From: Candidatus Omnitrophota bacterium
Lineage (GTDB): Bacteria > Omnitrophota > Gorgyraeia > B26-G9
Reading direction: 5' to 3'
Assembly: GCA_043826565.1 (NCBI GenBank)
Contig: JBDRPX010000003.1
Span: forward strand, 3,614 to 67,613
Length of the DNA stretch: 64,000 bases
Positions within the stretch are counted from its first letter, which is position 1. Each line of letters begins with the position of its first letter. Shown piece after piece: positions 1,635 through 54,164 of this stretch. The notes beneath the pieces were generated by a model, which made no database searches, was not told the origin of the DNA, and saw nothing but the letters and a program-made list of their open reading frames with translations. The position numbers and the translations under genes were made by a program.

Positions 1635-1714
1635 TATATGCCGGGTATACGCCCATTGCTGATGTTCTTGGAAAAATAATAAATACAGCATATAAGATTT
1701 AGAATAGGATGGGA

Positions 1715-1758
1715 GGGTGGGCGAAACACAATAATAATGTTTCGCCCACCCTTTTACC
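1715..1758 (+). terminator. Rho-independent terminator
   Basis: Perfect 14-bp inverted repeat GGGTGGGCGAAACA (1715-1728) / TGTTTCGCCCACCC (1738-1751) with a 9-nt loop, followed by TTTT. It lies inside ORF-track call 1709-3463, which argues that the gene's real start is downstream. Confidence 0.75.
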
Positions 1759-1816
1759 TTTAATGGGTAAAAGGAAAATACTGAAACTAAATATAAATAT
1801 AGAGAAGGAGAAATTG

Positions 1817-3463
1817 ATGAAAGCAACACTAGTGTTACGTAAGTATCTGTTTCTCATCAGAATTCTTCTTCCTTGCCTAATACTGGTTTCCGGTATAGTT
1901 GTAAAAACTTGCTGCGCGGATTCTTTTTTGAAAACACGCGTGGAAAAGATTGACACTCCGCAGCTTAAAGAAGTTAATCGCATAAAGCAGGTTTTGCGCC
2001 ACTTTGATATTCCCAGAGATATCGGGTTTATTAAAGAACTGCATGTTTCCAATCAGCCCAGCGAGAAATTAGTAATTACTATTCAGGATTTGCATTGCCA
2101 TTATCAGGCCCAAAAAAATATTGCGGCTTTATTAGATTATCTCATCAATACTTACGGGCTAAAAGTTGTCAGTGTCGAAGGCGGTTCCGGAAAGATTGAT
2201 ACTACTTTTTATAAAGAATTACCGGATGCGAATGTTAAGGAGCAGGTCGCTGATTATTTTTTAAGAGAAGCCCGGATTAATGGTACGGAATATTTTGCGA
2301 TTACGACAAAAAAAGACATTGCTCTTTACGGAGCCGAAGACGCGAAATATTATGATAAGAATCTGGAAGCATTTTTAAAAGCGCTGCCCAAAAGAGAGAC
2401 TATTTTAGAGGGGATCGCGGTTTTAGAAAATGATTTAAATATATTAAAAGACCGTATCTATAATAAACATTTAAGAGAACTTGATGATCTTGTGGTTGCT
2501 TATGATAACGGAACATTGCCGTTTGAGGATTATGTTTTATATATCGCTGATCATTATTCGCAGGATAAGATAAAAAGTGAATTTACTCAGCTGCCGAATT
2601 TAGTCGATAGTATCAGGATAAAAAAAGATATGGACCTTGAAGAAGCGGAAAAACAGCGCGGGGAGATGATTGATTATTTGACCAACAAGCTTACCCGTTT
2701 GGAACTTGAAGATTTCTTAAAGGTAACCTTGGAATTTAAGTCTAAGAGCATCGATAGTCTCCAGTACCATAACCGGCTTAAGGATTTGTATGCTCAAATG
2801 GAGGTTAAGTCTAAAACTCTTGACCGGGCCTGGCCGGAACTTAGTAAGTATATGGAATATCTGAATAAATATGAAACGTTAGATAAATTTGTTATGTTTC
2901 ATGAGATAAATGAAGTTCTTGATCGGATAAAGGATTCAATGTATACAAGTTATACGCAAAAGGATCTGGATTATTGCTTGAGTACTGTCCGCCTGGCGAG
3001 AAATTTATTTTCCACCAAGCTGCTTACCCGGGATCTTCCGGTTATGGAGAAGCACAAGAGTGATTTTAGCGCTCGTAAGCTTACGAAATTTATTAAAACT
3101 CAAAGCAAAAGATTGAAGTTAAATCTGCCGATTCCGGCAGGAATTAATGAAATGCAGGAAAATCTTCCTATTTTAGAAGATTTTTATGACTATGCTTCCC
3201 GGAGAAATGATGTTTTAGCCGAGAATACTTTGCAGGGGATGAATAATGAGGGAGAATGCATTGGTGTTTTGATAACCGGCGGTTTTCACACGGACGGAAT
3301 ATCCGAGTATTTTAAAGAAAGACGGATCAGCTATGTTGTGATTGCTCCGGTTGTGGATAAATTAGATGAAGATGATACCCGGTATATTCGGGCATTACAG
3401 GGGAAAAAGACTCCGTTTGAATTGCAGCTGGAACAGGAAGAAAAATTGGCGAAACAGGAATAA
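1817..3463 (+). CDS. Hypothetical N-terminally membrane-anchored protein (548 aa)
   Basis: ATG at 1817 preceded by GAAGGAG RBS at a 7-nt spacing. Hydrophobic N-terminus (LFLIRILLPCLILVSGIVV). The start lies downstream of the terminator hairpin. No family recognised. Confidence 0.6.
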   Translation: MKATLVLRKYLFLIRILLPCLILVSGIVVKTCCADSFLKTRVEKIDTPQLKEVNRIKQVLRHFDIPRDIGFIKELHVSNQPSEKLVITIQDLHCHYQAQKNIAALLDYLINTYGLKVVSVEGGSGKIDTTFYKELPDANVKEQVADYFLREARINGTEYFAITTKKDIALYGAEDAKYYDKNLEAFLKALPKRETILEGIAVLENDLNILKDRIYNKHLRELDDLVVAYDNGTLPFEDYVLYIADHYSQDKIKSEFTQLPNLVDSIRIKKDMDLEEAEKQRGEMIDYLTNKLTRLELEDFLKVTLEFKSKSIDSLQYHNRLKDLYAQMEVKSKTLDRAWPELSKYMEYLNKYETLDKFVMFHEINEVLDRIKDSMYTSYTQKDLDYCLSTVRLARNLFSTKLLTRDLPVMEKHKSDFSARKLTKFIKTQSKRLKLNLPIPAGINEMQENLPILEDFYDYASRRNDVLAENTLQGMNNEGECIGVLITGGFHTDGISEYFKERRISYVVIAPVVDKLDEDDTRYIRALQGKKTPFELQLEQEEKLAKQE

Positions 3464-3485: not shown

Positions 3486-6485
3486 ATGTTTAAGCAAAAA
3501 GAAGGTTTATTGAGAAAAGCATTTATAGTATTCCTTATTAATATATTTATTTTTGCGAATACGCAAGGATCATTTGCGGCACAGGTATATGTTGAACATA
3601 AGAATATGGAGACTTCTACACTGGCTCCGAATCTGCGCATGACCATGGATACGCTGAGAATGGTATTCAATAGTTTTATGAATCCGTCTAAGGAAATTAA
3701 AATTCGCAATTTAAATATTTCCTGCGGAGTATTATCCGATCTGGTTAAAGAAATACAAGCAACTGAAACCGGTTGTATAATCACTAATAAAAATGGTGAT
3801 ACTTTAAATGTAGATGCTATTCAATACGGTGATTTCGATCTATTACAGGTCGGTGACATAAGGTATGTTGTCCGGGATACATCCCAAACAGTTGATCTCG
3901 CTCAGATAAATCCATTGGCAAATACGGCTTATCAGCAGTTTTTCGGAATTGATATTAATGCTATTTCTCCGGAACAGTTGGGATTTGCTCTGCCGGTTGC
4001 CGAAGCAAAAGAAAAAAATAGTGTGGATATGTTCCCGGTACGGGGACAGACTGCGGATACGGTTTTAGCATCCGCGCGTGAGTTTGTTCTAAAAGCACAG
4101 GGAATGGTAGATGCCGGATCTTCACTGAACCGCCGTTTGATAAACGAATTGCTGAATAATATTTTAATTATCGGTTTAAACGGCAGCTGGGAAGATTATT
4201 ATTTAGCTAAGGATGTGCTGGAAAAATATAGGGAAGTGAAGCATTTTTCTGATTATAAGAATATCATGGTCAATATGATGAACGGATTGTTTTTTTCCTA
4301 TGTCAGCTGTGACTGGAGAAAAGTAGAGGAGTACAGCAGGATAATTCTGCAGGGAGAAAAAAGCGTTTCCGGACGCACAAAAACAATGTTTGAATTACCC
4401 ATAGAAAATGCTCGTCTTCCAGTAAATAATACCGTAGATTATGAAGTGGAAAGCATAAAAATACTGGGTGAAGAAGAATTGGAGCATATGGCTACTGATG
4501 ATTCCCGGGAAGAATTTCGTTTAGGACAATCCGCGGTTGAGCAGGGCCGGATTGTTTCTATTCCCTTTTGCGGCGGTTCCGCGACAACAGTAAAAAACCT
4601 TATTGGAGAACATAAATTAGTGCATCAGGCGATTAAAGTGAGGGTGAAAAAAGCCGATGGAACTGAAGAAATAAGATATATAAGTGTTACGGACGCGCGG
4701 TTAGGTTTATTACGCGCGCAGAATCCCAACGCGCAAATTGCTATGGTTACCAGTGTCTCCGAGCCTGGTGGTGTGGATAGTGATAAAAGTATCAGACAGG
4801 CCATATCCAAGCGTTACCCCGGAGCCTTAGCCGACGGTAGAATCAGTATTTCTATGCAGAGAGCGCAAACAGTACTGAATAATAAAACCGGTTATCCTAT
4901 GCGTTTTGACAGCGGTTATACCGCGGCTTGCGCGGAAAACCATATGTGGGCTTTATTAGCGGTATTGATGAATAAAGAGGCGATGATTAATTATTTAAAA
5001 AACAGTGACGGTATTTTTTCTATCGGTAACGGTGATAATATATTGAATATTGTAAAAGAAGGCATGGTCGGCGCTATTTTAAAAGCCAGAGAACAAGGCC
5101 GGGCTTTGGCCACAGTTCCTCTGGCAGCATTATCTGCCGGAGACAGAAAAGGCGGAGTAATGGTGGAAGTTACTTATCGTCATAAAGACAGGCATTCGGA
5201 AAAAATAGTGCAAAAAGAGATCCGTGAGATCAGTGAATTCCCGACACGTCCGGGCAGCGGTTTTTCCGGAGTTACCATTGACGCGGAAAAAGAATTAGAG
5301 GCTTTTCAGTATTTTGAGCAAAAGGGCTGGTTTATTGAAGATTTGTTCGGAAATACCGCGAAAGCGTTTAATGTCGCGTTTTACGCGATTGACGGACGTT
5401 TAATAATTTCCCGAATATTTGGTTTTGATGAAAATAGCGCTGGTTTTATCGAACAGTTGGAAAAGATCAGTGCGGATGAATGGATAAATAGAATACTTGA
5501 TATTGTTTATGAGGTGCAAACTACGGTAAAGCCGTCCAAAGGAGTTCCTAATGAAAATGGAACAGATACGGTAAAAGGACGAATAATTGAAAATGCCGTA
5601 CAGGATTTTATTGTTAATGGCTTGGCATTATTAGCAAAAGAGGGAAAGCCTAATCTGGAAGCAGAGATGCTTATTGCCGACAGAAAGGATATTTTTTTAC
5701 CTTACAAAGGAACGGCCCAGCAGAGATTGGATAAAAAAGGAGAACCGATCCTGGGAACTAATGTTTATGATTTGATCGCCAATCAGGACCGCATTGCCGG
5801 AGTTATTGAGGAAATGGCTGCTCAGGGGCAATTAGCTGATTTAGGTAATGGAGAACAGGTGCTGGAAGCAATCCCGATTTATAATCTTGATGAAATTATG
5901 ATCGCCAGCAGTGATGAGGGTTTAACACCGAGTGATATTAGTGAAGATATGGTCATCCGTCATTCTTTGGCACGTTTGGCAAAACACACTCAATCAACCA
6001 GTGCTAAAATATTAAAATCTTTTGGTTTGATCCCGGATAATAAGGAAAACGCAAAAAAGAACTTATTGAGTATTCGTGATGCGGCGAAGAGCCTGAAAGA
6101 AGAAATCGAAACTATGGCCTATCACCGGGTAATTTATGATACGATTGATAATGTTTTAAGACCGAAATATAAATTAGATGGTATTCTTATTAATATTGAA
6201 ACAACAAGCCAGTTAATTGTCGAGAGGATGGATAGTGAAGGTTTTAATTATGCCGAAGCAATGTTAAGATTATCTGAGGCCTTGGGCGAACTTAGTGTTT
6301 TTGCTCATGATTTTTTAGAAGCATCTTCGCAGGAATTGATTTTAGGGGAAGTTGCTCCGAATAAAACAGCGATCGATATTACCAGGATGGTTTTAAATGG
6401 AAGAGCTCCGGTTGATCAGCAGGAACCGGGTAAAGCAAATGTAGAAGCCCTAGATTCCGTAAATATGGTTTTGCAGGCTATATAG
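3486..6485 (+). CDS. Large secreted or membrane protein (999 aa), member of the leader/LAP-motif family
   Basis: RBS AAAGGAAG before the ATG. N-terminal hydrophobic leader (KAFIVFLINIFIFANTQGSFAAQ) followed by TLAPNLRM, which matches the [C/Y]LAPxV motif that follows the leaders of four other proteins in this window. Confidence 0.65.
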   Translation: MFKQKEGLLRKAFIVFLINIFIFANTQGSFAAQVYVEHKNMETSTLAPNLRMTMDTLRMVFNSFMNPSKEIKIRNLNISCGVLSDLVKEIQATETGCIITNKNGDTLNVDAIQYGDFDLLQVGDIRYVVRDTSQTVDLAQINPLANTAYQQFFGIDINAISPEQLGFALPVAEAKEKNSVDMFPVRGQTADTVLASAREFVLKAQGMVDAGSSLNRRLINELLNNILIIGLNGSWEDYYLAKDVLEKYREVKHFSDYKNIMVNMMNGLFFSYVSCDWRKVEEYSRIILQGEKSVSGRTKTMFELPIENARLPVNNTVDYEVESIKILGEEELEHMATDDSREEFRLGQSAVEQGRIVSIPFCGGSATTVKNLIGEHKLVHQAIKVRVKKADGTEEIRYISVTDARLGLLRAQNPNAQIAMVTSVSEPGGVDSDKSIRQAISKRYPGALADGRISISMQRAQTVLNNKTGYPMRFDSGYTAACAENHMWALLAVLMNKEAMINYLKNSDGIFSIGNGDNILNIVKEGMVGAILKAREQGRALATVPLAALSAGDRKGGVMVEVTYRHKDRHSEKIVQKEIREISEFPTRPGSGFSGVTIDAEKELEAFQYFEQKGWFIEDLFGNTAKAFNVAFYAIDGRLIISRIFGFDENSAGFIEQLEKISADEWINRILDIVYEVQTTVKPSKGVPNENGTDTVKGRIIENAVQDFIVNGLALLAKEGKPNLEAEMLIADRKDIFLPYKGTAQQRLDKKGEPILGTNVYDLIANQDRIAGVIEEMAAQGQLADLGNGEQVLEAIPIYNLDEIMIASSDEGLTPSDISEDMVIRHSLARLAKHTQSTSAKILKSFGLIPDNKENAKKNLLSIRDAAKSLKEEIETMAYHRVIYDTIDNVLRPKYKLDGILINIETTSQLIVERMDSEGFNYAEAMLRLSEALGELSVFAHDFLEASSQELILGEVAPNKTAIDITRMVLNGRAPVDQQEPGKANVEALDSVNMVLQAI

Positions 6486-6583: not shown

Positions 6584-6967
6584 ATGGCTGAAGAAAAACG
6601 CAAATTTATTCGTGTTAAGACCCGCAAGTCTGTAGCTAACTGCCGATTACTCGCAAATGAGAGATCCGGGGAAAGTAAATTCGCGGTTTGGCCGGTTAAA
6701 GATCTTGGAATCGGCGGAGCTGCAGTTTATTGCGAAGATGATATTCCTTTGGAAACCCTGGCCTATTTGAATATGGACCTTGATGTGATCAGAAGAACTA
6801 TTGGGGTTATTGCTAAAGTAATCTGGCGTCAGGCCAAGGATGCCGGATATGAATTAGGTTTGCGGTTTTGCTGGTGGCCGTTGACAGATGACCGGGATGT
6901 CATGGCTGATTATATTGAAAATAAAATAACTTATAACGATACTTCCGAGGAAGTATTACTAGGATAG
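6584..6967 (+). CDS. PilZ-domain protein (putative c-di-GMP receptor), 127 aa
   Basis: N-terminal RxxxR-type motif (KRKFIRVKTRK) and DxSxxG-type motif (DLGIGGAAV), as expected for PilZ. C-terminal FCWWPLTDDRD motif shared with the two other small PilZ proteins here. Confidence 0.7.
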   Translation: MAEEKRKFIRVKTRKSVANCRLLANERSGESKFAVWPVKDLGIGGAAVYCEDDIPLETLAYLNMDLDVIRRTIGVIAKVIWRQAKDAGYELGLRFCWWPLTDDRDVMADYIENKITYNDTSEEVLLG

Positions 6968-6978
6968 AGAACCATTCT

Positions 6979-6997
6979 CTCACCCCCGGGGTGAGGG
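6979..6997. repeat. GC-rich palindromic element CTCACCCC-C-GGGGTGAG(GG)
   Basis: Inverted repeat between the PilZ stop (6967) and the next gene. The same CACCCCCGGGGTGAGGG 17-mer recurs at 63982-63998. Confidence 0.6.
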
Positions 6998-7029
6998 AAT
7001 GGTTGGTAAATCAGGAGGAAATCAGGTTA

Positions 7030-9669
7030 ATGCGTGCTCTGAATTTGAAAAACAGGATGTGTTTCAAAATTACAGCTTTTATTATTTTACAGGTGTTTCT
7101 ATTGTCCAGTACAGTAGGCGCAGCTGGGTTGGATCATTTTGCAGTTAATGATCGCGCGGAGTGTCTTGCGCCGTCTGTGCGTTTGGATAACTCTCTGCTT
7201 ATGGATGTGTTTAAAAGAGCGTCGGAGCAAGGTACTGGGCTAGGGGTATTCTCTATTGAGTCAGAAGATATCAACACGGAAGTTGCTGAAGGACTAGTAA
7301 ATTCTTCAAAACAGGCAGCTGACGAGGGAACTTCCGGGCCGAATAATAGCGGGCAATCAGTTAATGGGACAAACAGTGCTCCCGGGCAGATGTTTTTTGG
7401 CAGCGGTAATCCGGAACAAATTGAAGAGCCGATCTGGCCGCCGCCGCAAGCAGAAGCGATCGTTGTCGGCAATGGAAATAATTTCGGCTTACCTTATTTG
7501 TGGAAAAAAGATGAAATGATCAAAGCTTTAAGAGCCTATGGCTTGGCTTGTAATTGGGATGAGTTTTCCCGGATGGAACTGCGCAGCCTTTTAAAAACAT
7601 TAGGAGAATTAATTGAAAAAGACGGTACTTTTGCCGCGAACTTAGCCGCGGTAAAGCCTTTGGCAGTAACCAGAGGTTCTTATTATGTTAATAAGGGAAG
7701 AAAAGACAGTAATCAGCTGGCAAAAATAGTGCAGAGTAAAGGCGAAACCCGGTTGGTATTGTATAAGCCTTTCTTTTATCAATTGATGTTCATGCCGCAA
7801 AACCGGCAGATGAAAAGAGAAGCTTTACAGCAGATCATTGGTGATTATGCGGAATCAAATTTATTTTTTGATAAGCCGCAAGCTAAAGGTAAAGAGGAAC
7901 AGCCAGTGATGGTTTCTTTTAATGATTTGGAACTTATGTCTGCTGCGGATGGTGACGCGAAATTAATAAAGATCGGAGTTCCGGAACATATGATCCCGAT
8001 CACAAAATATATTGTCTACAGATTAAAGCAGTATCGTGACCCGGCACCAGAACATCAATGGCAAAAGGGATTTTCCAATGTACGGATAGTTCGGGCGCCG
8101 GTTTTTTCCCTTAATGTTTTTGAAGCAGCTTTAAAAGAAGCTAATGTGCCTGCAGAGCATATCGATAGAAATCATATAGAAGAATTGTGTGAACTGATCA
8201 ATAAAGAGATGAAGGACCGGAAAGAAACGAGACTTGAGGTAATGTTTTTTAATAGCGCATTGCGAGTTGTTCCGGCGATCAGTCCTTTAAATGATAAACA
8301 AAAAGAAATAATTGTTAATTATTTAAACAGGGCAATTAGTGAGTTAAAAGAATATGAAAAACGTTTTTGGGTTGTTTGGGAAAAGCCGCGGGAAGACGGT
8401 GACGGCACAGAAACTGTTTTAGATATTTATGTGGATAAAATCCCTTATCTTTATACTCTTTCGCAGGATTGCCTGAAATATCCCGGAGCTCCGGATGGAG
8501 CCCGGATCTGGCGCATTGATCCGGCAAACACCGCAGAGCCGGCTAAGACATTATTAGATTTGGTGCTTGACGCATCTCTGGCTCCGCATGAAGGCGGTAA
8601 ACACGGGCACGCGATGAGAGTTCCGGTTGCGCAGGGAAGCGGTGATGCTTTAGCTATTCCCTGGGATGAGATCGAAGACGCGCAGGATCGGGAAAAAATG
8701 CTTATGGATTTCTTAGTAAGGATCGCGAAAAGAGATTGGCCGCAAATAATTCTGGATGTTTTTAAAGGCCCGCATAAATGGGTACCGGCATTAAATGCTA
8801 TTGGCAATGCTTTAAAACAAAAAGGCCAGGGCCCTTATTTGCCGGGGCCAAGGCCTATTACCCAGTCAATAATCAGAGAAGTTCAGGCTAATGCCGGAGT
8901 ATTTCATGAATCCGGGATCATGGGCCTTGCGGTCGGGCAATGGTTTTTCCATGTTTATTGCGCGGATGATATCGGCCGGATACACGCGAACAATAATATT
9001 GATTATTATTTGGCTACGCGCTGCACATTTTTAGATGCCAAACAGCGTGATGAGGTAAAACGCTGGGTAGTTAAAATTAATAATGCCCACCGCAGTTTAC
9101 TGGGGCAGAAACCGCAGGAATTAAACATTGTATTTGATACTGATGACGGTTATCTGTTTGGGACGAAAGTTCCCACAAATAGCGGCGGGCTGTTTGCGAA
9201 TTTAACAAGTAGAAAAATCGGAACAGGAATGTTTTCTTTACTGGCAAGTATTTTTACGCTCAAGAGTATTTTTGGGGTTCCGGCTGCGGAAGCGGCAGTG
9301 CCCGGAATTGTTAAGGCAGGATTTGCCGGTTCCGGAGGCTCATTACTTTTCGCTGTTGGAATTACTCTGGCGATTGGCGTTCCTCTGGTGATTATTGTTT
9401 TTTCCAGAAGATATCTAAACAGCAGAAGAGTTTCCCTGGCTTTGCGTGCCGGTATTGGCGGGCCGGTAGAATATACTGCTGGTAATAAATATCCTCTGGG
9501 AACAGGATGGGGGGATATTATACCGGCTAATAAAGATATTATTAGCGCAACAGCAGCAGCAGCCAGCGCTTTTGTCCGAAAAAGAGGATCAATGGTAACT
9601 CCTCCGGTTGATAATGGTAGTGGAGTCGGCAGCCGTAATACAGGTGTTTTGATAGAGTCATCAATTTAG
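7030..9669 (+). CDS. Leader-family membrane or secreted protein (about 880 aa) with a C-terminal TM anchor
   Basis: The ORF track starts at GTG 6991. I prefer ATG 7030, which has AGGAGG 11 nt upstream and aligns the leader (KNRMCFKITAFIILQVFLLSSTVGAAG) with the other family members. ECLAPSVRL motif follows. A hydrophobic stretch lies near the C-terminus (LLFAVGITLAIGVPLVIIVF). Confidence 0.6.
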   Translation: MRALNLKNRMCFKITAFIILQVFLLSSTVGAAGLDHFAVNDRAECLAPSVRLDNSLLMDVFKRASEQGTGLGVFSIESEDINTEVAEGLVNSSKQAADEGTSGPNNSGQSVNGTNSAPGQMFFGSGNPEQIEEPIWPPPQAEAIVVGNGNNFGLPYLWKKDEMIKALRAYGLACNWDEFSRMELRSLLKTLGELIEKDGTFAANLAAVKPLAVTRGSYYVNKGRKDSNQLAKIVQSKGETRLVLYKPFFYQLMFMPQNRQMKREALQQIIGDYAESNLFFDKPQAKGKEEQPVMVSFNDLELMSAADGDAKLIKIGVPEHMIPITKYIVYRLKQYRDPAPEHQWQKGFSNVRIVRAPVFSLNVFEAALKEANVPAEHIDRNHIEELCELINKEMKDRKETRLEVMFFNSALRVVPAISPLNDKQKEIIVNYLNRAISELKEYEKRFWVVWEKPREDGDGTETVLDIYVDKIPYLYTLSQDCLKYPGAPDGARIWRIDPANTAEPAKTLLDLVLDASLAPHEGGKHGHAMRVPVAQGSGDALAIPWDEIEDAQDREKMLMDFLVRIAKRDWPQIILDVFKGPHKWVPALNAIGNALKQKGQGPYLPGPRPITQSIIREVQANAGVFHESGIMGLAVGQWFFHVYCADDIGRIHANNNIDYYLATRCTFLDAKQRDEVKRWVVKINNAHRSLLGQKPQELNIVFDTDDGYLFGTKVPTNSGGLFANLTSRKIGTGMFSLLASIFTLKSIFGVPAAEAAVPGIVKAGFAGSGGSLLFAVGITLAIGVPLVIIVFSRRYLNSRRVSLALRAGIGGPVEYTAGNKYPLGTGWGDIIPANKDIISATAAAASAFVRKRGSMVTPPVDNGSGVGSRNTGVLIESSI

Positions 9670-9688
9670 ATTTTAAAAGAGAATTAAA

Positions 9689-10054
9689 ATGTCAGATAAA
9701 GAAAGAAGACAATACAAAAGAATTAAAGTTGAAAAGATTGGGGCGGATTACCGTCTTGTTGACCCTAATTTTTGGGCCCAGTCCAGAGCGCAGGGGAAAA
9801 ACAGTTTGCAGGATATTAGCCTTAGCGGAGCATCGTTTAATACCGGAGATATTTTGCCGGAAGATTCTGTTTTGGATTTAAATCTAAAATTGGGAAGTCT
9901 GATAAATATTGATGGGATTTGCGGCCGCATTGTCCGCGTACGAAAACTCACTAGCGAGAATTTTGAAATTGGGGTTGTTTTTTCCTGGTGGGAAAGAGAA
10001 GAAGATAAGCAAAATCTCGTAAAATTTATGGAACAAACCGGAACTAAACAATAG
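9689..10054 (+). CDS. PilZ-domain protein (putative c-di-GMP receptor), 121 aa
   Basis: ERRQYKRIKVEK (RxxxR) and DISLSGASF (DxSxxG) motifs. C-terminal VFSWWEREEDKQ motif. Confidence 0.7.
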   Translation: MSDKERRQYKRIKVEKIGADYRLVDPNFWAQSRAQGKNSLQDISLSGASFNTGDILPEDSVLDLNLKLGSLINIDGICGRIVRVRKLTSENFEIGVVFSWWEREEDKQNLVKFMEQTGTKQ

Positions 10055-10067
10055 AGCATCCTGAGAG

Positions 10068-10101
10068 GTTCCGCGAGCGAAGCGAAGCGCAAAAGCGGAA
10101 C
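10068..10101 (+). terminator. Candidate hairpin after the PilZ gene
   Basis: GTTCCGC (10068-10074) / GCGGAAC (10095-10101) 7-bp stem with a 20-nt loop and no U tract. Weak. Confidence 0.25.
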
Positions 10102-10369
10102 AGGTTGCCCGCAATCCGATGGTGCGATTTCAACACATCCCCTTCCTTTAATTAGTCTATTATAGAAACAAATTTTTTAGTTATTTGTGATGAATTTGTG
10201 TTTTATTTTAAAAATTTCTTTTAAATATAATTTTTTAAAGTAAAATATTTAGTTAAGAAAATAACGCATTTTTGGGCAAGTCAAGAAATGACTGGTTTTA
10301 GCTGATGGGATATTTTCGTAACTCCTCTATTTTTAGTTAGTTACATTCCGAAGAAAACTCAGATTTTTT

Positions 10370-10398
10370 TTGACACCCCCCACTTTTTATGATATACT
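10370..10398 (+). promoter_or_regulatory. Sigma70-like promoter for the giant gene
   Basis: TTGACA (10370-10375), exact 17-nt spacer, TATACT (10393-10398), with an AT-rich UP-like tract upstream. Predicts a leader of about 150 nt before ATG 10552. Confidence 0.6.
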
Positions 10399-10551
10399 AT
10401 AAATGTGTTAAAAAAGTAGGAAAAAAATAATATAACTTGTTCAAAAATAAGGTAATTACAAAAAACATATATAGATTTTTAGTTGACTGATTAAAGAGCT
10501 GGTAATTCAAATGTTTATTGATTAAATTGAGTGTTATGAAAATCAGGTGAT

Positions 10552-13500
10552 TTGATGTATTACTCAAACAAAAAATTCAGTCTCGGTTTTAAAATAATCG
10601 CTGCGGTGATTATCCAGGCTTTTTTGGTGACTGATATTGTTTGGGCTGCCGGTGGAGATCTCCGCTGGATAAATGATCAGGAGAATACATCACGCTCGGC
10701 TTCTAAAACTTCCTATCTTGCGCCTACCGCAAATATTAACAAAGGCATATTCCGCACAAAATTTGATTTAGTAGTTTCGCTTATTAATGCTATGGAGAAT
10801 CGGGATAATACGGAACTATTGGCTAAACATGGAATTAATGTGTTTAGTGAAAATGTCCTCTCTATTCAGGGTGAAAAAGAAACACTTTATATTTATGATC
10901 GGAATGCTGAGGGTATTCCTTTGTTCATAACCGGGGCAGAGCAAAAGATTATATTTAATGGGTATGTGATTTCTGCTGTGCCCAATGAAAATGCTGATGC
11001 GCAAAGTCTGAATGTTCCGGAGGGTCAGGCAAGTGTTCTGAGCCGGCGTGAATTTAGTGATAAGCTTAAAGTTTTGGAAACGCAGGGAAAGGACTTTAAT
11101 CAGGAGGAGGCTCTGGAATTAGTAAAGCAATCAATACTTTTAAGCGGGCTTACCGGTGGGCAGTGGAAGGATGAAAAGTGGGTTATTCAGAAAGATGCGA
11201 TTGTCTTGATGCAGAGCGGTATGGTTGTTCGGATGCCGACTTCTGCGGGTAAGACATTTGTATTTAACGGTACCGGGATATTAAGAAGCCTGGCCAATAA
11301 ACTAAATCCGGATGCGCAAAGGGAAGTATCTATTGTTCATACTGAAGAAGGCTTGATTGAAAGAGACGCGAGAAATGCCGGAAAAGTAAATGGCCGTTTC
11401 GGGCTGAAAACAGGATATGTTGTTTCACGTGATGGTAAAAGAACAGCTTATTTTGTTGATGCTAATGGACAGGAGCAGGAAACCACCGAGCAGGAGCTTT
11501 ATAAAGAAGCAAATATCGTTTATGTGAATATTTATAATTTCATCCATCGTTTTTTGGATGACCGGTTTACCGCCAGAAAAGCCGGGGATCAGGCTTTACG
11601 CTGGGGAGAGCAGACTTATTTTGTTGCCTTTGACGAAGGTGATGTTCCATTAAAGCACCATGTTTCTACGCCTTGTATAATTTCCGGAGGAGAAACCCTG
11701 AATGCGGATGATCTCGTGAAGCGGGCGGAACAGCTGCTTAAGATGCAGGAAATCATTGATCAGCTTATTCATGAAGGACTCTTGAATGAAGACGGAACCA
11801 GGGCCGAAAATGAATTAGCGGAAGTTAAAACTGGTTCTCAGACCGCGACTCTTACGAGAAAAGGAAAAGCCTGGCTTAAAGATAAACTTCAGCAGGTAGA
11901 GCAATACAAAAATAATCAAGGTAAACAATCTATTTTTGCGGATGATGCTTTATGGGAAGAGCATGTCGAGCAAGCGCTTTCCGCTTATTTATTTTACCGT
12001 AAAGGTGAAGCCTATAATATCTCCGAGAATAATGAAATCGTGATCATTGATAAAGATACCAGCGGTATGCAGTTAGCCGGAAGGCGCTGGAGCCATGGAC
12101 TTGATATTGCGGTAAGGTTAAAAGAAAACAGAACCAGAGATGAAAACAGTAAGCTGGAAATTAAACCTGACCAGATGACGATTGCTTCCATGATGCTTCC
12201 GGAAATCCTCAGCGATACGTTGGGACTTGTTTCCGGAATATGCGCGGCTTCGGCGACGATCAATAAAGATACCGCGGATATGTATGGTTTGGATTTTAAA
12301 TCTCTTAGCGGTGAAGCTTCCAAAAGAACAGAGCGGGTAATTATGAGTTCTGATCAGGCTGAATCAGCGCGGAATGCGCTTAAGGCAATTGATGTTCTAA
12401 AAGCGGGAGTTGCGGCTGATGAATCAATGCAGGATTGGGGCCTTCCGGAAAAATCAGGATCGGTATTAATCCGCTGTGATGGAGAAGTGCAGGTTCGTGA
12501 GTTTGCCGATTTGCTTATAGCAAATACTCAGATGAAGGGCCGGAATATCCGGCGGATTACTCAGGATGGGAAAATACTTGATGCCAGCGGCAAAGAAGTT
12601 CCGGGAATAACTATTGATGATCTTGATTCTTTGGTTAGTGATGAAACAATTGATAATGTAATAATTGAATTTACTTCCCAGAATCGCGAAGTGCCGGCGG
12701 ATGGGAAAATGCTTAAAGATCGGATAGAAGATCTTTCTCAGCATCCTAAAGTTATAATTGTATCCACACACTTAGCCGGACGCGGAGTTGATTTTAAGGG
12801 CGATGATATGGTGGTCATGTCTTTAAGCGCTGACCCGGCTGAAGAAACTGATGTGCAGTTGAGAGGCCGCGGCGGCCGTGACGGCAGAGTGGGTTACTTT
12901 TTCGGATTTTGGTCAGTCCAGGATGCGGTATTTACAAAATATACAAGTCTGGTTAATGAAGAACTGAAATATTTCACCGCTAAGGTTAAACCCGGACAAA
13001 CGCATACTTTTGAGATCACCAATGATAGTAAGACCGCGGGTGATAGTGAAAAAACTGTAATGGCAATGCGCGAAATAATAAACGCGCATAATCAGAATAT
13101 GCGGCGCGCGCAAAAAGCTTTTGGTGAATTATCATGGAATGAGGGGGATGAAAACGGTTTTGGCGAAGGTTTTGCCAGAACGCACTCCAGAGCCAGAGAG
13201 CGGATCATTTCTAAAGGAATAGAAGGATTAAATATTCCGGAGGATGTTTTAGCCGCGATCAAGACTAAAATCAGCAAGGTTGTTAAACAGAAGCGCAAAA
13301 CTCTTACCGGGATACCCAGCTCGGCAACGGTTATTTCGATATTAGAAGATGAGTTTGGGTTAAAGAATGTTGATGCTGATATTGCACAGCAAGCATTAGT
13401 TTCGGCACAATATAACCTGGAAATGGCTTTATTTACGGTTATTGCTGATGTGCTTCAGGCTAGAGCATTACAAATCGTTGATCAGCAATGGATGCGTTTT

Positions 13501-28500: not shown

Positions 28501-31500
28501 GCTGAAGAAAGCCTTAATAATGCGCATACTTATATCAGCGGACAACAAGGAGAGGGTTTAGTTATCGCCAATACCTATGGCCGAAGCGCGCCGATTGTCC
28601 GCGAGCAAACAGGATCTTTAGATCAGCCGGCACAGCGTCAGCAGATATATGATTTCTTATCATCGAATATAAACGGCCAAAGCGGAACAATTGCCGAGCA
28701 GCATCGTTTTAGCGGTGATAAAGGATTTACTCAGGATGAAGGCCAGGGAACTTTATACGGCAATTCTTTAACCGGATTTGTCTTTGATCTGGTGGACGCA
28801 AGATTAGAACAGCAGGCAATTACGGATTATGTCGTGGATACTCCGAGCTTAATGGTCTATCGTCATGATCCGACTTCTAAGCAGAGAAGCAGAACGAGGT
28901 TGATCGGCATATCTGATTCTTTTGATACCGCTTCTTATACCGGCCGTCCGGAGGAATTGTACGCGACAACCGGTCCGCAGGCATATTATGGCAAGAGATT
29001 ACTCGCGGAATATCAGAGAACCGGAGATAAGAAATATTTAGACCAGGCTTTGGTGATTTACGGATTGCTTAGGGAACGCCAGGTTGCTAACGGCGGTTTT
29101 ATAAAGGCTCCGCAGCGCGGGGATCTCCGGGATAGAGAAGAGGATCAGGATAAGATCATCTCTGGTGAAGAAAATATTGCGGCGCTCAGCTTCTTAAGAG
29201 ATCTTGCGGAAATTATCAAAGGTGATAAACAGTACCGAAAAATTAATAAAGATCTGAGCACAAGATTACATAATGCGGTTAATTTTGTGTATTCATCATT
29301 ATATGACAAACAGACAAATACTTTTACCCGCGGGTTAAACTTTGAGGATAATCAATGGCGCAGGGACGGTGTTATGGCCATAGATGTGCTTAATTTATTG
29401 ATCTTAGAAGAGGGCGCGGATAATCTCGCGCAGCGCATCGGCGCGGATAATCTTATCGTGTTATGGGACCAGAAAGAACGTACAACGCTTGCTGCGGTAA
29501 CAACACAGCGTGCTGACGGAACCAGTGTTACGGTTACCGGTCATGACTGGACAGATAGTACCGGCCGGGGAGATCGTGCTGCCGCGGTGTTTGTCGAACA
29601 GACTTTTATTGATTCTTTAGCGCATTTGGAAATGGCGGCATTATTTAAAAACGCGGGTAATGCGGCTCGTGCGCAGCAGGAATTAAATACCTATAAAACT
29701 CATTTAAGTGAATGTGATAAACTGGCGGTTCATGTCGAAGGCAGAGGAGTTGTTTATCCGTATGCGTCTATGAGCGGGATTAAGCCGTTTAGCGATTCAA
29801 ATCGGATAATCCCGGAGCATTTTGGTAATACTTCCGCTACAGCCTGGGGATTCTTTGCTAAATCCCGGTATAATCTTTTTGGTAATAGAACCCTGGATGC
29901 GGATACTGTTATTGATCGAGTTACTCCGAGTTTTACGAATACTTTGGCCGGCCGGATCCGGGAAGAAGCCGCCAGGCAGATAGAATTATTACCGAATAGA
30001 ATGCAGAACGCGGTGAATGGTTCCTATGAGAAAAAATTAACTTCCGGCCGTCAGTCAATTGATCAGGCCGTAGAAAAATTAGAAGCTTTAATGCTCCGCG
30101 CGGCGGATGATATTACTCCGAGTGTTGATGAAGATTACTTGATCGCTTTTGATAATGAAGCAAGTATATATTGGTTCTGGAGCGCGGAACAGCAGAAAGT
30201 TGTGGAAGTGACCATGATTGCTGATAGCGAGAGTATTAAACGTGACCTGGCGAATCTGCAATTATCTTATGAATACGCCAAATTGCGGCAGTCCATGCGG
30301 CAGGACAATCTAAGTGGTTTGGAAATTACAAGTATTGACGGTGCTCCCATACGTTTACCCAGCGAATTGAACACGCAAACATTAGACGGCCAGCCGTTCC
30401 ATATTCCGGCAGGTTCCGCCGGTGTTGTCATCGGTCATGATCTGCTTTTAAGAAAACTCAATGAAATTGACGCATTGCCTTTAGCGCAGCAGCGTCAAAT
30501 CGAACGCCGCGGCTGGATGCTGGTCGATACTCTCGGCAATATCCTGGGTACGGATGATAAAACACCGGTTCGGGTTCGTTTATTATTCCCTTCAGGCAGT
30601 TGGCAGAGAACCAGAAATAATCCGGATACCGGAGTAGAGGAGACATTACATTTTAGAGGCGGATATGGTTTAGAAAAAGTGGTTACGGATAATTATACTT
30701 CTATAACAAGTTATAATGAGGTCGGCCTTGCAAACCGGGTAATTACTTTTAAACGAGATGCCGGAGAAGAACCAAAAGTAAGAGAGCTTACCGGAAATGC
30801 GCTTGATGAATTCATCATGACCGGTAACTTTAAAGAAATTGCCGGAGTAATTGAAATAAGAAATATTACCGCCCAGGATTTTAAAGGCAGTATTGTTTTA
30901 GCTGATTTAGAGCCGGTAGTCGAAGAGTTTGTCAGAACGCATAGACAATATCTAATTGCCAGAGGTACTCTAAAGCGTGATAGTACCGCGGAAGAAAGAA
31001 AAGCGCTGGTGAAGACAATGTCCGCGGATTTACAGCAGCAGCTTATAGCTAACGGTTATTTAAATGAAAACGGAGATATTTTAGATAAATTTAAAATATT
31101 GCCTGATTCTACCGCGCTTAATATTTCTGATGAATTTACCAGGATGCGGGAAGCTGTTTATAACCGCGTTCTTCGTGCTCTTGATTGGCACAGGATCGGA
31201 TATAGCGTGGATAACCCGGTATTAAACGCGCAGCAGTTGGAAGTATTTACTCCGGCTTCCCGCCAGGCGACCTGGACAATTACCGATACGAAAGTTAAAC
31301 TGGCTTTTCCCAATGAATTCGGACATGTTCAGAGAGCGGATATCTGGCATCAGGATGGAACGATGGATCAGCCGAAGCGCGGTATTTTAGGCTGGCAGGA
31401 AACAACCCTAAACCGGGATAAAACAAATCATGAATTGACAATCCACAGTATTAATCTGCTGAATGACCGGGAAAAAGATACGGTTTTTGATTTATCCTAT

Positions 31501-46257: not shown

Positions 46258-46641
46258 ATGGGAAGAAGTAGTGTTATGGATATGATACAGGATAAACGTC
46301 AATGCAAAAGGCGGCGCACAAAATACGCGTCCATTAGTTTGCGGTCTCTGGACCCGCAGGCGTGGTTTAAGTTCTGGGGCGGCGCGGAGTGTTTTCTGCG
46401 TGATCTCAGTTTGCTGGGAGTGGGAGTTTACAGCCAGGAAAAGCTTCCTATCGGCACGCGCTTAAGCATTGACCTGCGTTTGGGAAAACAGGCCAGCAGT
46501 ATCCGGGTTTTCGGCCGGATCACCTGGACGGAAAAAGAGGATGATCAGTACCGCTCCGGAGTAAGCTTTTCCTGGTGGAGAGATGACCAGGATAAAAAAA
46601 TTGTCAGTAGTTTTGTGGAAAGACTTGGATTAGTTAACTAA
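46258..46641 (+). CDS. PilZ-domain protein (putative c-di-GMP receptor), about 120-127 aa
   Basis: KRQCKRRRTKY and DLSLLGVGV motifs. C-terminal SFSWWRDDQDKK. The start is ambiguous among ATGs at 46258, 46276 and 46282. Confidence 0.65.
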   Translation: MGRSSVMDMIQDKRQCKRRRTKYASISLRSLDPQAWFKFWGGAECFLRDLSLLGVGVYSQEKLPIGTRLSIDLRLGKQASSIRVFGRITWTEKEDDQYRSGVSFSWWRDDQDKKIVSSFVERLGLVN

Positions 46642-46819: not shown

Positions 46820-48202
46820 ATGAAAAAAAGAATATTCTTAAAGGTTATTTCAGTTGTTTTGATCCAGGCGTTTTTAATGTTGGATTTTTGCTGGGCGGGA
46901 GGTAATGAAATTCAATCAGCCAATGAATATGGGAAACATCATTTAGCTCCGGCACTGCAGCTTACCAACCAAATGATACAACAGGCGCATCAGCAGGTTA
47001 TTATTGGCAATAGGATTTCTGCGCTCAATAAAACTTTTGAGGGATTACCCGCGGATACTTCTGAATATGGAGAGATTTTAAAAGTAAAACCCAAGCAAGA
47101 TTTAGTTGAAAGCTATTTTATAGACTATAAACAGAAATTTTACGGTAGACATCCAATTTTAAATCTTGTGGTTGGAGCATTGAGTTTAGTTGAAGCTATT
47201 GTTTTACCTGTTTGGGCAATGATTCTTCTTAAAATCGATCCTATCCTAATAGTTATAGGTGTTTTTTTTGTGGTTTTTAGTAATCATCCTTTCATCTTTA
47301 TTAGTTTTTTTCTTTGGTTGAATTCACTGCCGTTAGATCTAATTTCACGAAGGAAGTCAATACTTAATGAGCGGCAATGGAGAAAAAGTTTTAGCATATT
47401 GCAAAAACTGAGGAAAGATAAAACTTGGAGGGACGCGAAAGAGAGTTTTATTGAATTACGGAAATTAGGGTTTCCAGAAGATAAAATTAGGGATGAATAC
47501 ATTCAATTTGCATTGAATGATTTGCCGAAAAATAAAGAATTTATTACAGATGAAGATCTTAGTGCTATAGATTCTGCTATGGCTAAATTGAAGGGAGCAG
47601 GTGTGTTACAGAATGAAGTTGTTAAAATTTATGCTAAAGCATTGCTGGATCTTTTAGCTAGAAAAGAAAAACCTGGAGAGTTAAGGGAGATGAAATATGA
47701 TGATATCCTTGATGGGTTTCGTAACGAGTTTAATAATATAATGGAAGAAGTGGGTTTTATGAAAAGCAGCGGGCGTGTTAGTACTAGTAAGGTTGAGACC
47801 TTTTTCTCTAGTAGAGTAGGAGCATTGCTACGCACCTGGGGTAAGGATGATTCGACTTGGTATGAACTTGTTAGGCGTAGTCGTAATCATGAATTTGAGA
47901 TAGGCAGTGCGCCTGTATCCTCGTATGATTGGCGGCCTGAAGGGTCTTTTAGTGTGATTGATGAGTTTGAATCCGGCGGAAAATTTTTAGTTGAAGTTGA
48001 TAGCCATACACAAAGTTGGGAAGGTGGTGTTGATTATTTAACAGGAGAACCATATGAACCGCATTCAACAACATTTTATAGGTCTCTTTGGATAAGAAAG
48101 GTTGTAGATCAAAATTCCCCAGTATCTTTGCAAAATAAAGGAAAAGTTCAGATGGGGGGGAATAGCTTAAATCTCAAACTCTTGGTTGAACAGTCAATTT
48201 AA
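46820..48202 (+). CDS. Leader-family membrane protein (460 aa)
   Basis: GGGTGGA RBS. Leader KKRIFLKVISVVLIQAFLMLDFCWAGG followed by HHLAPALQL. Internal hydrophobic helices (VGALSLVEAIVLPVWAMILL, IVIGVFFVVF). Confidence 0.7.
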   Translation: MKKRIFLKVISVVLIQAFLMLDFCWAGGNEIQSANEYGKHHLAPALQLTNQMIQQAHQQVIIGNRISALNKTFEGLPADTSEYGEILKVKPKQDLVESYFIDYKQKFYGRHPILNLVVGALSLVEAIVLPVWAMILLKIDPILIVIGVFFVVFSNHPFIFISFFLWLNSLPLDLISRRKSILNERQWRKSFSILQKLRKDKTWRDAKESFIELRKLGFPEDKIRDEYIQFALNDLPKNKEFITDEDLSAIDSAMAKLKGAGVLQNEVVKIYAKALLDLLARKEKPGELREMKYDDILDGFRNEFNNIMEEVGFMKSSGRVSTSKVETFFSSRVGALLRTWGKDDSTWYELVRRSRNHEFEIGSAPVSSYDWRPEGSFSVIDEFESGGKFLVEVDSHTQSWEGGVDYLTGEPYEPHSTTFYRSLWIRKVVDQNSPVSLQNKGKVQMGGNSLNLKLLVEQSI

Positions 48203-51822: not shown

Positions 51823-52484
51823 TGAAAAAGTCTCAGGTCTCAAGTCGCAAGTCACAAGTTAGCAGTAAAAAACCAATACTTTTAATTTTATTTTTTGTTT
51901 TCTGTCTATGGTCTATGGTCTATGGTCTATGGTCTAGTTTCGCGCAAGAGGCTTCGGAAGTCAAACCGGAAGAAGCCAAGCATATTTTTGTCTATGCGGA
52001 TAAAGATTCTCCGGAAAATAGTTTTTCTCCGTCGGAATGGATCGGAGATAAAGAAGCTTTAAGTTTTAATGACGGTTGGGAAAAAGACCCCCAGCAGGGA
52101 AAAACTTGTATAAGAATAGACTATAAGGCCATGGGTAGTTTTGGCTGGGCGGGTATTTACTGGGTTAATCCTCAAGGTAATTGGGGCAATGAAAGAGGCG
52201 GATATGACCTGCGTTTTGCTAAAAAACTTACTTTTTGGGTCCGGGGTGAAAAAGGCGGAGAACATATCGCGGTATTTAAGTTCGGGGGATTAAAAGGAGT
52301 ATTTCCGGATTCAGATAACCACGGCATCGGCCCGATAATATTGACCCCCCAATGGCAGGAAATAAGCGTGGATGTATCCCCAAGAGACATGAAATATATT
52401 GGTGCCGGATTTAGTTTCGCGATTAGTAAAGCTTATAATCGTCAGGGTTGTGTTTTTTATATTGATAATATAAAATATGAGTAG
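51819..52484 (+). CDS. Secreted CBM-like beta-sandwich protein, paralog 1
   Basis: The ORF track begins at TTG 51807. The first ATG (51819) overlaps the upstream stop as ATGA. Signal peptide. Conserved core GWAGIYWVNPQGNWG...KLTFWVRGEKGGE...VFYIDNIKYE shared with the next two genes. Confidence 0.6.
   Translation: MMKKSQVSSRKSQVSSKKPILLILFFVFCLWSMVYGLWSSFAQEASEVKPEEAKHIFVYADKDSPENSFSPSEWIGDKEALSFNDGWEKDPQQGKTCIRIDYKAMGSFGWAGIYWVNPQGNWGNERGGYDLRFAKKLTFWVRGEKGGEHIAVFKFGGLKGVFPDSDNHGIGPIILTPQWQEISVDVSPRDMKYIGAGFSFAISKAYNRQGCVFYIDNIKYE
51894..51926 (+). repeat. Heptanucleotide tandem repeat (GTCTATG) x4.7 inside the signal-peptide coding region
   Basis: gtctatggtctatggtctatggtctatggtcta read directly. 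Encodes LWSMVYGLWSS. Confidence 0.85.
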
Positions 52485-52487
52485 GGA

Positions 52488-52503
52488 CAGGGCATGCCCT
52501 GTT
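52488..52503. repeat. Perfect 16-bp palindrome ACAGGGCATGCCCTGT
   Basis: Self-complementary sequence 4 nt after the stop of paralog 1, with no U tract. It could be a weak terminator or a protein-binding site. Confidence 0.5.
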
Positions 52504-52567
52504 CGGTATAAAGGGTATATCCGCCAAAAAAACTTGGCGGATCATTTAAGAAAGGAGGAGAAAGGTT

Positions 52568-53218: not shown

Positions 53219-53242
53219 TCATTTAGTTTGATTGATTTGTAA

Positions 53243-53282
53243 AAAGGGTAGGGGCAAAAATAATAGCTTCTACCCTTTTTTC
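53243..53282 (+). terminator. Rho-independent terminator
   Basis: AAAGGGTAG / CTACCCTTT 9-bp stem followed by TTTT. Confidence 0.6.
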
Positions 53283-53387
53283 GCCTGTTTTATTGCGGAA
53301 AATCTGGGTTGAATTTTTTAGCCGGATGATATAAAATATAAACAATAGCCGGATATACGGCAGCCATTAAAAAAGGGAGGATGGAAA

Positions 53388-54044: not shown

Positions 54045-54068
54045 TTTTACATATTAACAATATAATCA

Positions 54069-54110
54069 GAAGGGTAGGGGCTCTGTTAGTGTTGCTTCTA
54101 CCCTTGTTTT
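54069..54110 (+). terminator. Rho-independent terminator, sequence-related to the one at 53243
   Basis: AAGGGTAG / CTACCCTT stem followed by GTTTT. Confidence 0.6.
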
Positions 54111-54164
54111 AAAATAACTCAAAAGTATCAATTTTTGGAAAGGGGTTTAAAAAAGGATTTTATT

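Follow-up and report, generated by a model that had tools for sequence, protein, structure and literature searches.

How are the giant proteins of Omnitrophota, which are among the largest known proteins, exported and regulated? This is a puzzle for the field, and one clue is genomic: West-Roberts et al. 2023 (bioRxiv 10.1101/2023.11.21.568195) report one or more small pilZ homologs directly 3' of most giant genes in Omnitrophota, and propose a link between pilZ and GGDEF domains within the giant proteins. We asked what such PilZ proteins are likely to do in a 64,000-nucleotide stretch of an Omnitrophota metagenome-assembled genome (GCA_043826565.1, contig JBDRPX010000003.1; hereafter the window), where three stand-alone PilZ genes are interleaved with a giant gene and with ordinary-sized genes whose products share its N-terminal leader. 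An initial annotation of this DNA had described a two-gene module – a small PilZ gene immediately upstream of a leader-family gene – repeated three times. Comparison with related loci points instead to three ancient PilZ paralogues placed within two conserved cassettes, and we put the probability at roughly 55% that these PilZ proteins are cyclic di-GMP (c-di-GMP)-dependent adaptors acting on envelope proteins or on their export.

All genes treated here lie on the + strand, and the open reading frames (ORFs) that the initial annotation listed were recovered at the same positions. Its assignment of three small proteins to PilZ was correct: against Pfam PilZ (PF07238, curated cut-off 22.5 bits), PilZ-1 (6584-6967, 127 amino acids (aa)), PilZ-2 (9689-10054, 121 aa) and PilZ-3 (46258-46641, 127 aa) score 31.1, 35.8 and 38.2 bits, respectively. 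The window PilZ proteins are 100% identical to NCBI entries, though the NCBI annotation starts PilZ-3 at 46276, giving 121 aa. Characteristic sequences are RKFIR, DLGIGG and GLRFCWWPLTDDR in PilZ-1, RQYKR, DISLSG and GVVFSWWEREEDK in PilZ-2, and RQCKR, DLSLLG and GVSFSWWRDDQDK in PilZ-3. An RxxxR motif is thus present in all three, as it is in a fourth, fused copy described below (RKYIR) and in 20/20 family members from related loci. The second c-di-GMP-binding motif, [DN]xSxxG, is canonical in PilZ-2 and PilZ-3 and present in 18/20 locus-derived members; the careful alignment of binding residues that the initial annotation had proposed therefore bears out RxxxR in every copy and DxSxxG in PilZ-2 and PilZ-3, but not in PilZ-1.

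A sequence-profile search of the PDB with the PilZ family returned nothing at E <= 0.01, and a fold search was used instead. The AlphaFold2 model of PilZ-2 (predicted local distance difference test score (pLDDT) 84.6) has six strands and a C-terminal helix (104-120), and its top Foldseek matches are 5vx6 (MotI), 5ejl (MrkH), 4xrn and 4rt1 (Alg44), with template-modelling scores of ~0.7. The matched folds are those of c-di-GMP-binding PilZ domains – MotI/DgrA, MrkH, P. aeruginosa PilZ, Alg44, YcgR, BcsA and MapZ. Motifs and fold are consistent with the family members being c-di-GMP receptors that would bind the nucleotide. The small PilZ proteins carry no export signal, and they are predicted to be cytoplasmic because RxxxR starts at about residue 6 and no hydrophobic segment is present.

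The initial annotation had also singled out a tryptophan-rich C-terminal tail, absent from the fused copy, as a dedicated partner-binding surface. The segment turned out to be canonical PilZ structure. The Pfam match spans it (profile positions 1-100 of 102), and in the PilZ-2 model it forms the last beta-strand (91-101) and runs on into the beginning of the C-terminal helix. A homologous G-[LV]-x-F-x-x-phi...helix segment that lacks the Trp pair occurs both in the fused copy and in unrelated PilZ proteins, so the argument from absence falls away. A family signature is nevertheless real: across 20 locus-derived sequences of all three types we identified G-x-x-F-x-W-W-x4-D-[KR], with no variation at G, F, the second W or D and at least 90% conservation of the first W; the tail pattern as originally written fits PilZ-3 and misfits PilZ-1 and PilZ-2. 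Among wider relatives the second Trp alone is constant. The WW-type subfamily is small, with 847 matches at E <= 1e-3 and 41 at E <= 1e-10 among 1.84 billion representatives; querying a word-indexed homologue search with only PilZ-2 yielded 2 matches.

A six-frame motif scan combined with a leader hidden Markov model (HMM) identified exactly five leader-bearing ORFs in the window (starting at 3486, 7030, 10555, 46820 and 62335) and three F-x-W-W proteins. The leader genes are L1 (3486-6485, 999 aa, HMM E = 1e-24), L2 (7030-9669, 879 aa, E = 5e-26), the giant gene (10552/10555-46218, 11,887-11,888 aa, E = 4e-23), L4 (46820-48202, a 460-aa membrane protein, E = 3e-28) and L5 (62335-63813, 492 aa, E = 3e-26). 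L2 lies between PilZ-1 and PilZ-2 and has an AGGAGG 11 nt before its ATG at 7030. PilZ-2 starts 19 bp past the L2 stop and 497 bp before the giant gene, while PilZ-3 trails the giant gene, starting 39-57 bp past its stop and 178 bp before L4. The leader genes at 3486 and 62335 have no upstream PilZ and those at 46820 and 62335 no downstream PilZ; in the 187 bp 3' of L5 we found no ORF start and no PilZ. In 1e6 permutations of 20 window genes, full interleaving with six PilZ-leader adjacencies had P = 4.7e-5, which argues that the interleaving is not chance, and the placement of a leader gene after all three PilZ genes had P = 0.009. The linkage between PilZ and leader genes noted at the outset, giant included, is thus non-random, and it is kept in related genomes.

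The 497-bp spacer between PilZ-2 and the giant gene (10055-10551) is AT-rich and contains, at 10370-10398, TTGACA-17-TATACT with an upstream TG – 11/12 sigma70 matches and the best such site of the region. Our scan found no intrinsic terminator after PilZ-2, where the fold equals that of shuffles (z = 0), and no c-di-GMP riboswitch or other Rfam family was found in the spacer or elsewhere in the window. The spacer probably separates two transcription units, the second being that of the giant gene.

To place this arrangement in context we assembled 23 distinct related loci (after duplicate removal) from pattern scans of one-genome-per-species and JGI metagenome collections and from homologue look-ups; those that carry an organism label are given as Omnitrophota, Omnitrophica or 'PVC group', and we refer to individual loci by three-digit handles (L001 and so on). 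ORFs were called for each locus, HMMs for the PilZ subfamily and the leader were built, and neighbours were tabulated. The loci were fetched through their PilZ genes, which biases them towards PilZ adjacency. Three orthogroups of PilZ genes emerged (44-67% identity inside a group, 23-32% between groups), represented in the window by PilZ-1 (type A), PilZ-2 (type B) and PilZ-3 (type C).

Type A genes (11 loci) are followed by a leader gene in 10/10 determinable cases, at a gap of 1-62 bp (1 bp in L016 and L017). This downstream neighbour is an L2-type gene; PilZ-1 and its orthologues in 10 loci are 44-50% identical, and a leader-tail gene precedes type A in 9/10 cases at a gap of 41-220 bp. Type B genes (10 loci; orthologues 49-60% identical) are preceded by a leader-tail gene in 10/10 cases, at a gap of 19-163 bp, but in six loci the next gene encodes a PAS-HD-GYP protein (Pfam HD_5/HD and PAS), and a leader gene follows in two only, one of them the window. 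Type C genes (8 loci; orthologues 52-67% identical) lie after a giant or leader-tail ORF in 5/6 cases (in L006, L010, L020 and L021 among others), and in the sixth, L011, an Avd-like gene intervenes; the giant-then-small-pilZ order of PilZ-3 recurs in L006, L010, L011 and L020. A family gene follows type C in 4/6 cases, at 123-237 bp, and a non-family gene in 2/6. In three loci type C is 14-63 bp from the giant stop, as against 123-467 bp from the next gene.

Among relatives with a long contig, the closest (GCA_024231215.1; L025) has genes for a 563-aa protein, two leader proteins, PilZ-A and L2 and then, past a 694-bp spacer, for a 10,644-aa giant, PilZ-C, a 490-aa protein, an MFS transporter and a glycoside hydrolase, in that order. 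Read together, these gene orders indicate that the PilZ types are ancient paralogues with fixed positions and not copies travelling with each family member, that PilZ-3 is the copy belonging with the giant gene, and that the second pair proposed initially, PilZ-2 followed by the giant gene, is an accident of this genome's loss of the HD-GYP gene. Of the threefold module, then, what survives comparison is the type A pair (10/10 loci) and, in 4/6 loci, the type C pair, and not the type B pair; as to the persistence of pairing in relatives, interleaving is kept whereas a uniform order with PilZ upstream is restricted to type A. Judged by gene spacing in the window alone, each PilZ would go with the gene preceding it; this reading was dropped, as in the comparative table type A is nearer the following gene.

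Several observations concern the same junctions. The proteins encoded after type B are membrane-anchored, multi-PAS HD-GYP proteins of the c-di-GMP phosphodiesterase type in L001 (4437-6986), L002 (10482-12299), L003 (2015-4279), L013 (8213-10048), L015 (8053-9945) and L016 (7906-9780); the gene is absent from the window, and tblastn of the window found no remnant of it. The insert between giant gene and PilZ-C in L011/L012 (9595-9948) encodes a 117-aa Avd-like/23S rRNA intervening-sequence protein. This family forms four-helix bundles and is often a diversity-generating retroelement accessory; no reverse transcriptase was seen within the L011/L012 locus. In L006 an IS200/Y1-type transposase gene (10548-11186) directly follows PilZ-C in place of an L4-like leader gene, which suggests a recent insertion.

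What the neighbours of these PilZ genes have in common is confined to their two ends. The leader opens K/R-rich and continues with a ~20-residue hydrophobic stretch, in which Q-x-F and a D are conserved, and with W/x-A-[AG]-G; a [TC]-L-[AS]-P motif lies 10-25 residues further on. Residues at -3 and -1 are small (V/C/A-W-A then G/A in the alignment), and the leader looks like a Sec signal or anchor, yet the conserved Q and D lie inside the h-region. No Pfam or NCBIfam model covers the family, and the 61-column leader profile gave 1 match in the word-indexed homologue search. Topology casts doubt on binding of a PilZ protein to the leader N-domain, as first proposed: the leader resembles a signal or anchor of the Sec type, and the PilZ proteins lack any export signal.

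At the other end, L1, L2, the giant, L4 and L5 terminate in ...VLQAI, ...LIESSI, ...LAETGV, ...LVEQSI and ...VLHSI (codons 6471-6485, 9655-9669, 46204-46218, 48188-48202 and 63799-63813). We identified a shared phi-phi-x-x-[AS]-I end, with the consensus L-[IV]-[EG]-[QS]-[AS]-I across loci, in 21/25 complete leader ORFs as against 6/65 others (Fisher p = 1.5e-11); among the six non-leader carriers, several are family members that are split or have diverged. Ile is the final residue of 29/35 leader ORFs and of 8/82 others. The 490-aa positional equivalent of L4 in L010 likewise ends in ...IEQSI. This shared end looks like a second recognition signal. One locus, L005, has a 310-aa leader ORF and an overlapping ORF that ends in ...LIESAI (3516-5439); these look like a single leader-tail gene broken by a frameshift or by misassembly.

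Between the two ends, leader-family proteins are hypervariable. BLAST between genomes matches the first ~60 residues only, apart from one case – L2, which has full-length similarity only to L009 2923-5475, at 32% – unlike the PilZ and 584-aa proteins, which are 45-65% identical between genomes. L1 has no hydrophobic segment besides its leader, and its body has no BLAST match in relatives. L4 has 2-3 further hydrophobic segments (aa 111-176), a K/R-rich stretch and a C-terminal domain. K/R-rich stretches follow the last hydrophobic segment in L2, L4 and L5, and these positive-inside residues suggest that the C-terminal parts of the three proteins are in the cytoplasm, within PilZ reach.

The giant protein combines SecA-like DEAD/PPXD and Helicase_C domains with an SLT lytic transglycosylase domain and 63 overlapping hydrophobic windows (Pfam SecA_PP_bind, Helicase_C and SLT; NCBIfam SecA 87 bits, aa 209-581). 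Within its first 800 residues (10555-13000) the SecA-like motor, preprotein cross-linking domain and Helicase_C (~209-800) come right after the leader, and the next hydrophobic segment is at ~1075.

At the head of the first cassette, directly 5' of L1, lies a gene for a 584-aa single-pass membrane protein (1709-3463). It has one hydrophobic segment (aa 40-74) and an invariant TGGFHT near its C-terminus. It is the best-conserved gene of the cassette and always lies just 5' of the first leader gene: homologues in the same position are 57-64% identical in L004, L013, L008 and L007 and 30% in L002. No Pfam family scored above threshold and the PDB held no relative; one homologue has a faint ChaN/Tiki-superfamily match (E = 0.035). 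The protein could be a processing or docking component. Homologues lie at 1-1395 in L004, 1-1011 in L013, 2-586 in L008, 1378-3186 in L002 and 3136-4827 in L025.

The window also contains a PilZ-like domain joined in cis to a membrane protein (57374-59344), with the PilZ-like part at aa 1-125 and one transmembrane segment at aa 128-151; a coiled coil follows, and the C-terminal domain is related to part of the giant. That this is a fourth PilZ, as first annotated, receives mixed support. RKYIR and DVGFEG (DxGxxG) are in register, and the AlphaFold2 model is a PilZ barrel (pLDDT 83.6) with the same fold matches as PilZ-2, although it was built from a multiple sequence alignment of PilZ homologues and hence is not independent evidence; the Pfam score is 15.1 bits, below cut-off, and hhalign gives E = 0.002 at a probability of 13%. 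The C-terminal part (aa 315-654, 58316-59335) is homologous to giant aa 6056-6443 (28717-29880) at 24% identity and E = 1e-13, and neither segment has a Pfam family.

We reasoned from these features to a mechanism in which two cassettes are coupled to c-di-GMP. Cassette 1 consists of the 584-aa membrane protein, L1, PilZ-A, L2 and PilZ-B, followed in most relatives by the PAS-HD-GYP phosphodiesterase that is missing here; cassette 2, with its own promoter-like site, consists of the giant SecA-domain protein, PilZ-C and L4, and then the sugar-transporter/glycoside-hydrolase island. The L proteins and the giant form one family, defined only by a leader with [TC]-L-[AS]-P and a C-terminal phi-phi-x-x-[AS]-I end. 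A cytoplasmic PilZ would most likely bind the cytoplasmic part of these envelope proteins, or their export or assembly machinery, and binding would couple the deployment or activity of the envelope proteins to the c-di-GMP level. We favour an adaptor role because known PilZ proteins act in this way on other targets (Alg44, BcsA, YcgR/MotI, MapZ), because the fusion at 57374 joins a PilZ-like domain through one transmembrane segment to a giant-type domain, because the junctions are conserved across the 23 loci, with all genes on the same strand and short gaps between them, and because the leader and the C-terminal end are the sole features common to otherwise hypervariable neighbours. Observed are the fold, motifs and orthogroups of the PilZ proteins, the conserved gene order and the leader-tail signature; we infer c-di-GMP binding, co-transcription, the PilZ partner and the direction of control.

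A number of results weigh against this proposal. No GGDEF, EAL or HD-GYP domain was detected across the window, PilZ-1 has Gly at the motif Ser, and operon structure was read from gene spacing alone. By tblastn, no type B PilZ precedes the giant gene in L025; this absence, together with that of PAS-HD-GYP from the window, implies that parts of the system are dispensable in some genomes. Two WW-type PilZ genes of L005 adjoin no leader gene and lie between a PGI-like gene 5' and a sugar ABC system 3', and 19/41 leader-tail genes have no PilZ on either side, for example 4-5 tandem family genes in L011, and L5. By hydropathy L1 has no predicted cytoplasmic part besides its leader. Finally, if the leader exports what follows it, the SecA-like ATPase of the giant would be outside the cytoplasm.

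Among other explanations, the one we rate highest, though still as unlikely, is that the PilZ proteins regulate a shared machinery – a type II or type IV-pilus-like secretion ATPase, compare PilZ-FimX-PilB of Xanthomonas and Pseudomonas, or else the giant's SecA-like motor – with the leader genes belonging to the same predation or attachment island. West-Roberts et al. 2023 place a conserved locus resembling type II secretion or type IV pilus systems beside giant genes, and the window holds a GspJ-like pseudopilin gene and L005 a pilin-like gene. PilZ proteins far more conserved than their hypervariable neighbours are also what a conserved partner would produce, and the 584-aa protein is equally conserved. 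Yet the window encodes no GspE- or PilB-type ATPase, L1, L2 and L4 have no SecA-like domain, and conservation at the level of single junctions, with type A preceding L2 and type C following giants, exceeds what island membership needs. We consider it speculative, and rank it behind a shared machinery, that the leader-tail proteins, giants included, are cargo of an undescribed Omnitrophota-specific sorting or export route that reads both the leader L-A-P and the C-terminal end. Trp-signature PilZ proteins would then be c-di-GMP-dependent gatekeepers or pilots binding the C-terminal end, as the single feature exposed to the cytoplasm that otherwise unrelated cargo would share, and the 584-aa TGGFHT protein a processing or docking part; if true, a fast-evolving surface or predation arsenal would be deployed only at the right c-di-GMP level. 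Less probable again is the original proposal that each small PilZ is the dedicated c-di-GMP gate of the next leader protein, for every member, through its WW tail on the N-terminal leader domain. The unbroken type A junction, the leader gene after all three window PilZ genes and the conserved F, W and D of the signature speak for such a gate, whereas PAS-HD-GYP follows type B in six loci, type C is followed by non-family genes in 2/6, no PilZ precedes the giant in the closest relative and a spacer with a promoter-like site does so here. Individual gating of every leader protein is not supported, given the 19/41 family genes that lack a PilZ neighbour even in loci fetched through PilZ; the supposed tail is canonical PilZ structure, and the region past a Sec-like leader is probably outside the cytoplasm, where a PilZ without a signal would not be.

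Two further explanations fall below these. It is improbable that type C and the L005-type PilZ proteins tune the downstream glycan uptake and hydrolysis island to c-di-GMP, their place after the giant being incidental. The L005 pair does lie directly 5' of a substrate-binding-protein/ABC system and a set of glycoside hydrolase and ~220-aa genes like that at 49927-55421 of the window, with no giant or leader gene adjoining; pilZ and carbohydrate transport genes occur together downstream of giants according to West-Roberts et al. 2023, and the island holds the fusion at 57374. Type C is nevertheless closer to the giant stop than to the next gene in three loci, and that next gene is of the leader family rather than a transporter in 4/6; in L021 type C follows a 326-aa leader-tail protein with no island visible, and types A and B have no such island nearby. 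We find it very hard to credit that the PilZ proteins are degenerate adaptors that bind no nucleotide and serve as protein-protein modules only, like Xanthomonas PilZ XAC1133 and Pseudomonas PA2960. Gly replaces the motif Ser in PilZ-1 and the fused copy, and A, G or C does so in several type A representatives, but RxxxR is universal in the sampled family, [DN]xSxxG is kept in all of types B and C, and a c-di-GMP phosphodiesterase is co-encoded in six loci.

The c-di-GMP-dependent adaptor role that we favour has precedents. In Alg44 and BcsA, which act in alginate and cellulose secretion and are among the best fold matches, a cytoplasmic PilZ controls an envelope-spanning export or synthesis apparatus, and the fusion at 57374 has the Alg44 order of PilZ, one transmembrane segment and an extracytoplasmic domain. 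Here, however, 3/4 PilZ domains are separate proteins, no glycosyltransferase or membrane-fusion-protein partner is evident beside them, and the window neighbours are hypervariable proteins, not a polysaccharide synthase. MotI/DgrA, YcgR and MapZ-CheR1 resemble the small PilZ proteins in being cytoplasmic c-di-GMP receptors that lack an output domain (structurally, MotI is matched best and MapZ is among the other matches), and their feature is that the partner is bound only when the receptor is c-di-GMP-loaded. Their partners, though, are flagellar or chemotaxis proteins, no genes for which are present here, and what marks this lineage specifically is its Trp-Trp signature, at the junction of strand and helix.

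A conceptual parallel is the Lap system of Pseudomonas, which comprises the giant adhesin LapA, the c-di-GMP receptor LapD (GGDEF-EAL) and the protease LapG. In both cases c-di-GMP would decide the fate of a giant surface protein through a receptor encoded nearby. The likeness is one of concept and not of family: the receptor here is a PilZ, and Pfam and NCBIfam searches of the window ORFs found no LapD-like GGDEF-EAL protein, LapG-type protease or type I secretion genes.

The initial annotation had not recognized the architecture as a described system, but the pilZ-giant association in West-Roberts et al. 2023 makes it in part a known one. In that preprint, a small pilZ comes immediately after a giant multi-transmembrane gene with SecA-DEAD/PPXD, and genes for sugar transporters and glycoside hydrolases come next; PilZ-3 and its orthologues fit this order exactly; the window giant differs in that no GGDEF was detected in it. 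A search of its text found no pilZ beside ordinary-sized proteins, no three orthogroups, no PilZ-A/L2/PilZ-B/PAS-HD-GYP cassette, no Trp signature and no shared leader and C-terminal end. Relative to searchable text, what is new is the three orthogroups with fixed junctions, the cassette of PilZ-A, L2, PilZ-B and PAS-HD-GYP headed by the 584-aa protein, the extension to ordinary-sized proteins and the shared C-terminal end. A new kind of regulator is not established: there are well-known cases of PilZ receptors next to envelope machinery, and the link of pilZ to giant genes had been published before.

These results cut the problem of giant-protein deployment to a small conserved set – three 120-aa PilZ paralogues, PAS-HD-GYP in relatives, the 584-aa protein and a two-ended signature. 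The signature, leader plus C-terminal end, ties the giants to ordinary-sized hypervariable envelope proteins and can be used to find the whole cargo family in genomes. For binding assays, the set offers specific peptides and proteins from a phylum of which almost no members are in culture.

The remaining genes flank these cassettes. A 543-aa ORF lies at the left edge of the window and is open there. 3' of L4 are genes for an MFS sugar transporter, for two GH2-like hydrolases and for three small secreted proteins; these last are tandem paralogues of ~216-225 aa that end in ...DDIQ[YF]E, lie at 51807-54044 between the two hydrolase genes and have no Pfam match, and the set is kept in L010 and L005. 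Next, before the fusion at 57374, a TPR protein is encoded. The fusion is followed by a gene for a 728-aa protein (59356-61542) with a signal peptide and no Pfam match, which ends in ...YQGKF, an aromatic last residue typical of outer-membrane beta-barrels. This gene overlaps the start of the GspJ-like pseudopilin gene (61479-62189), which itself lies just 5' of L5.

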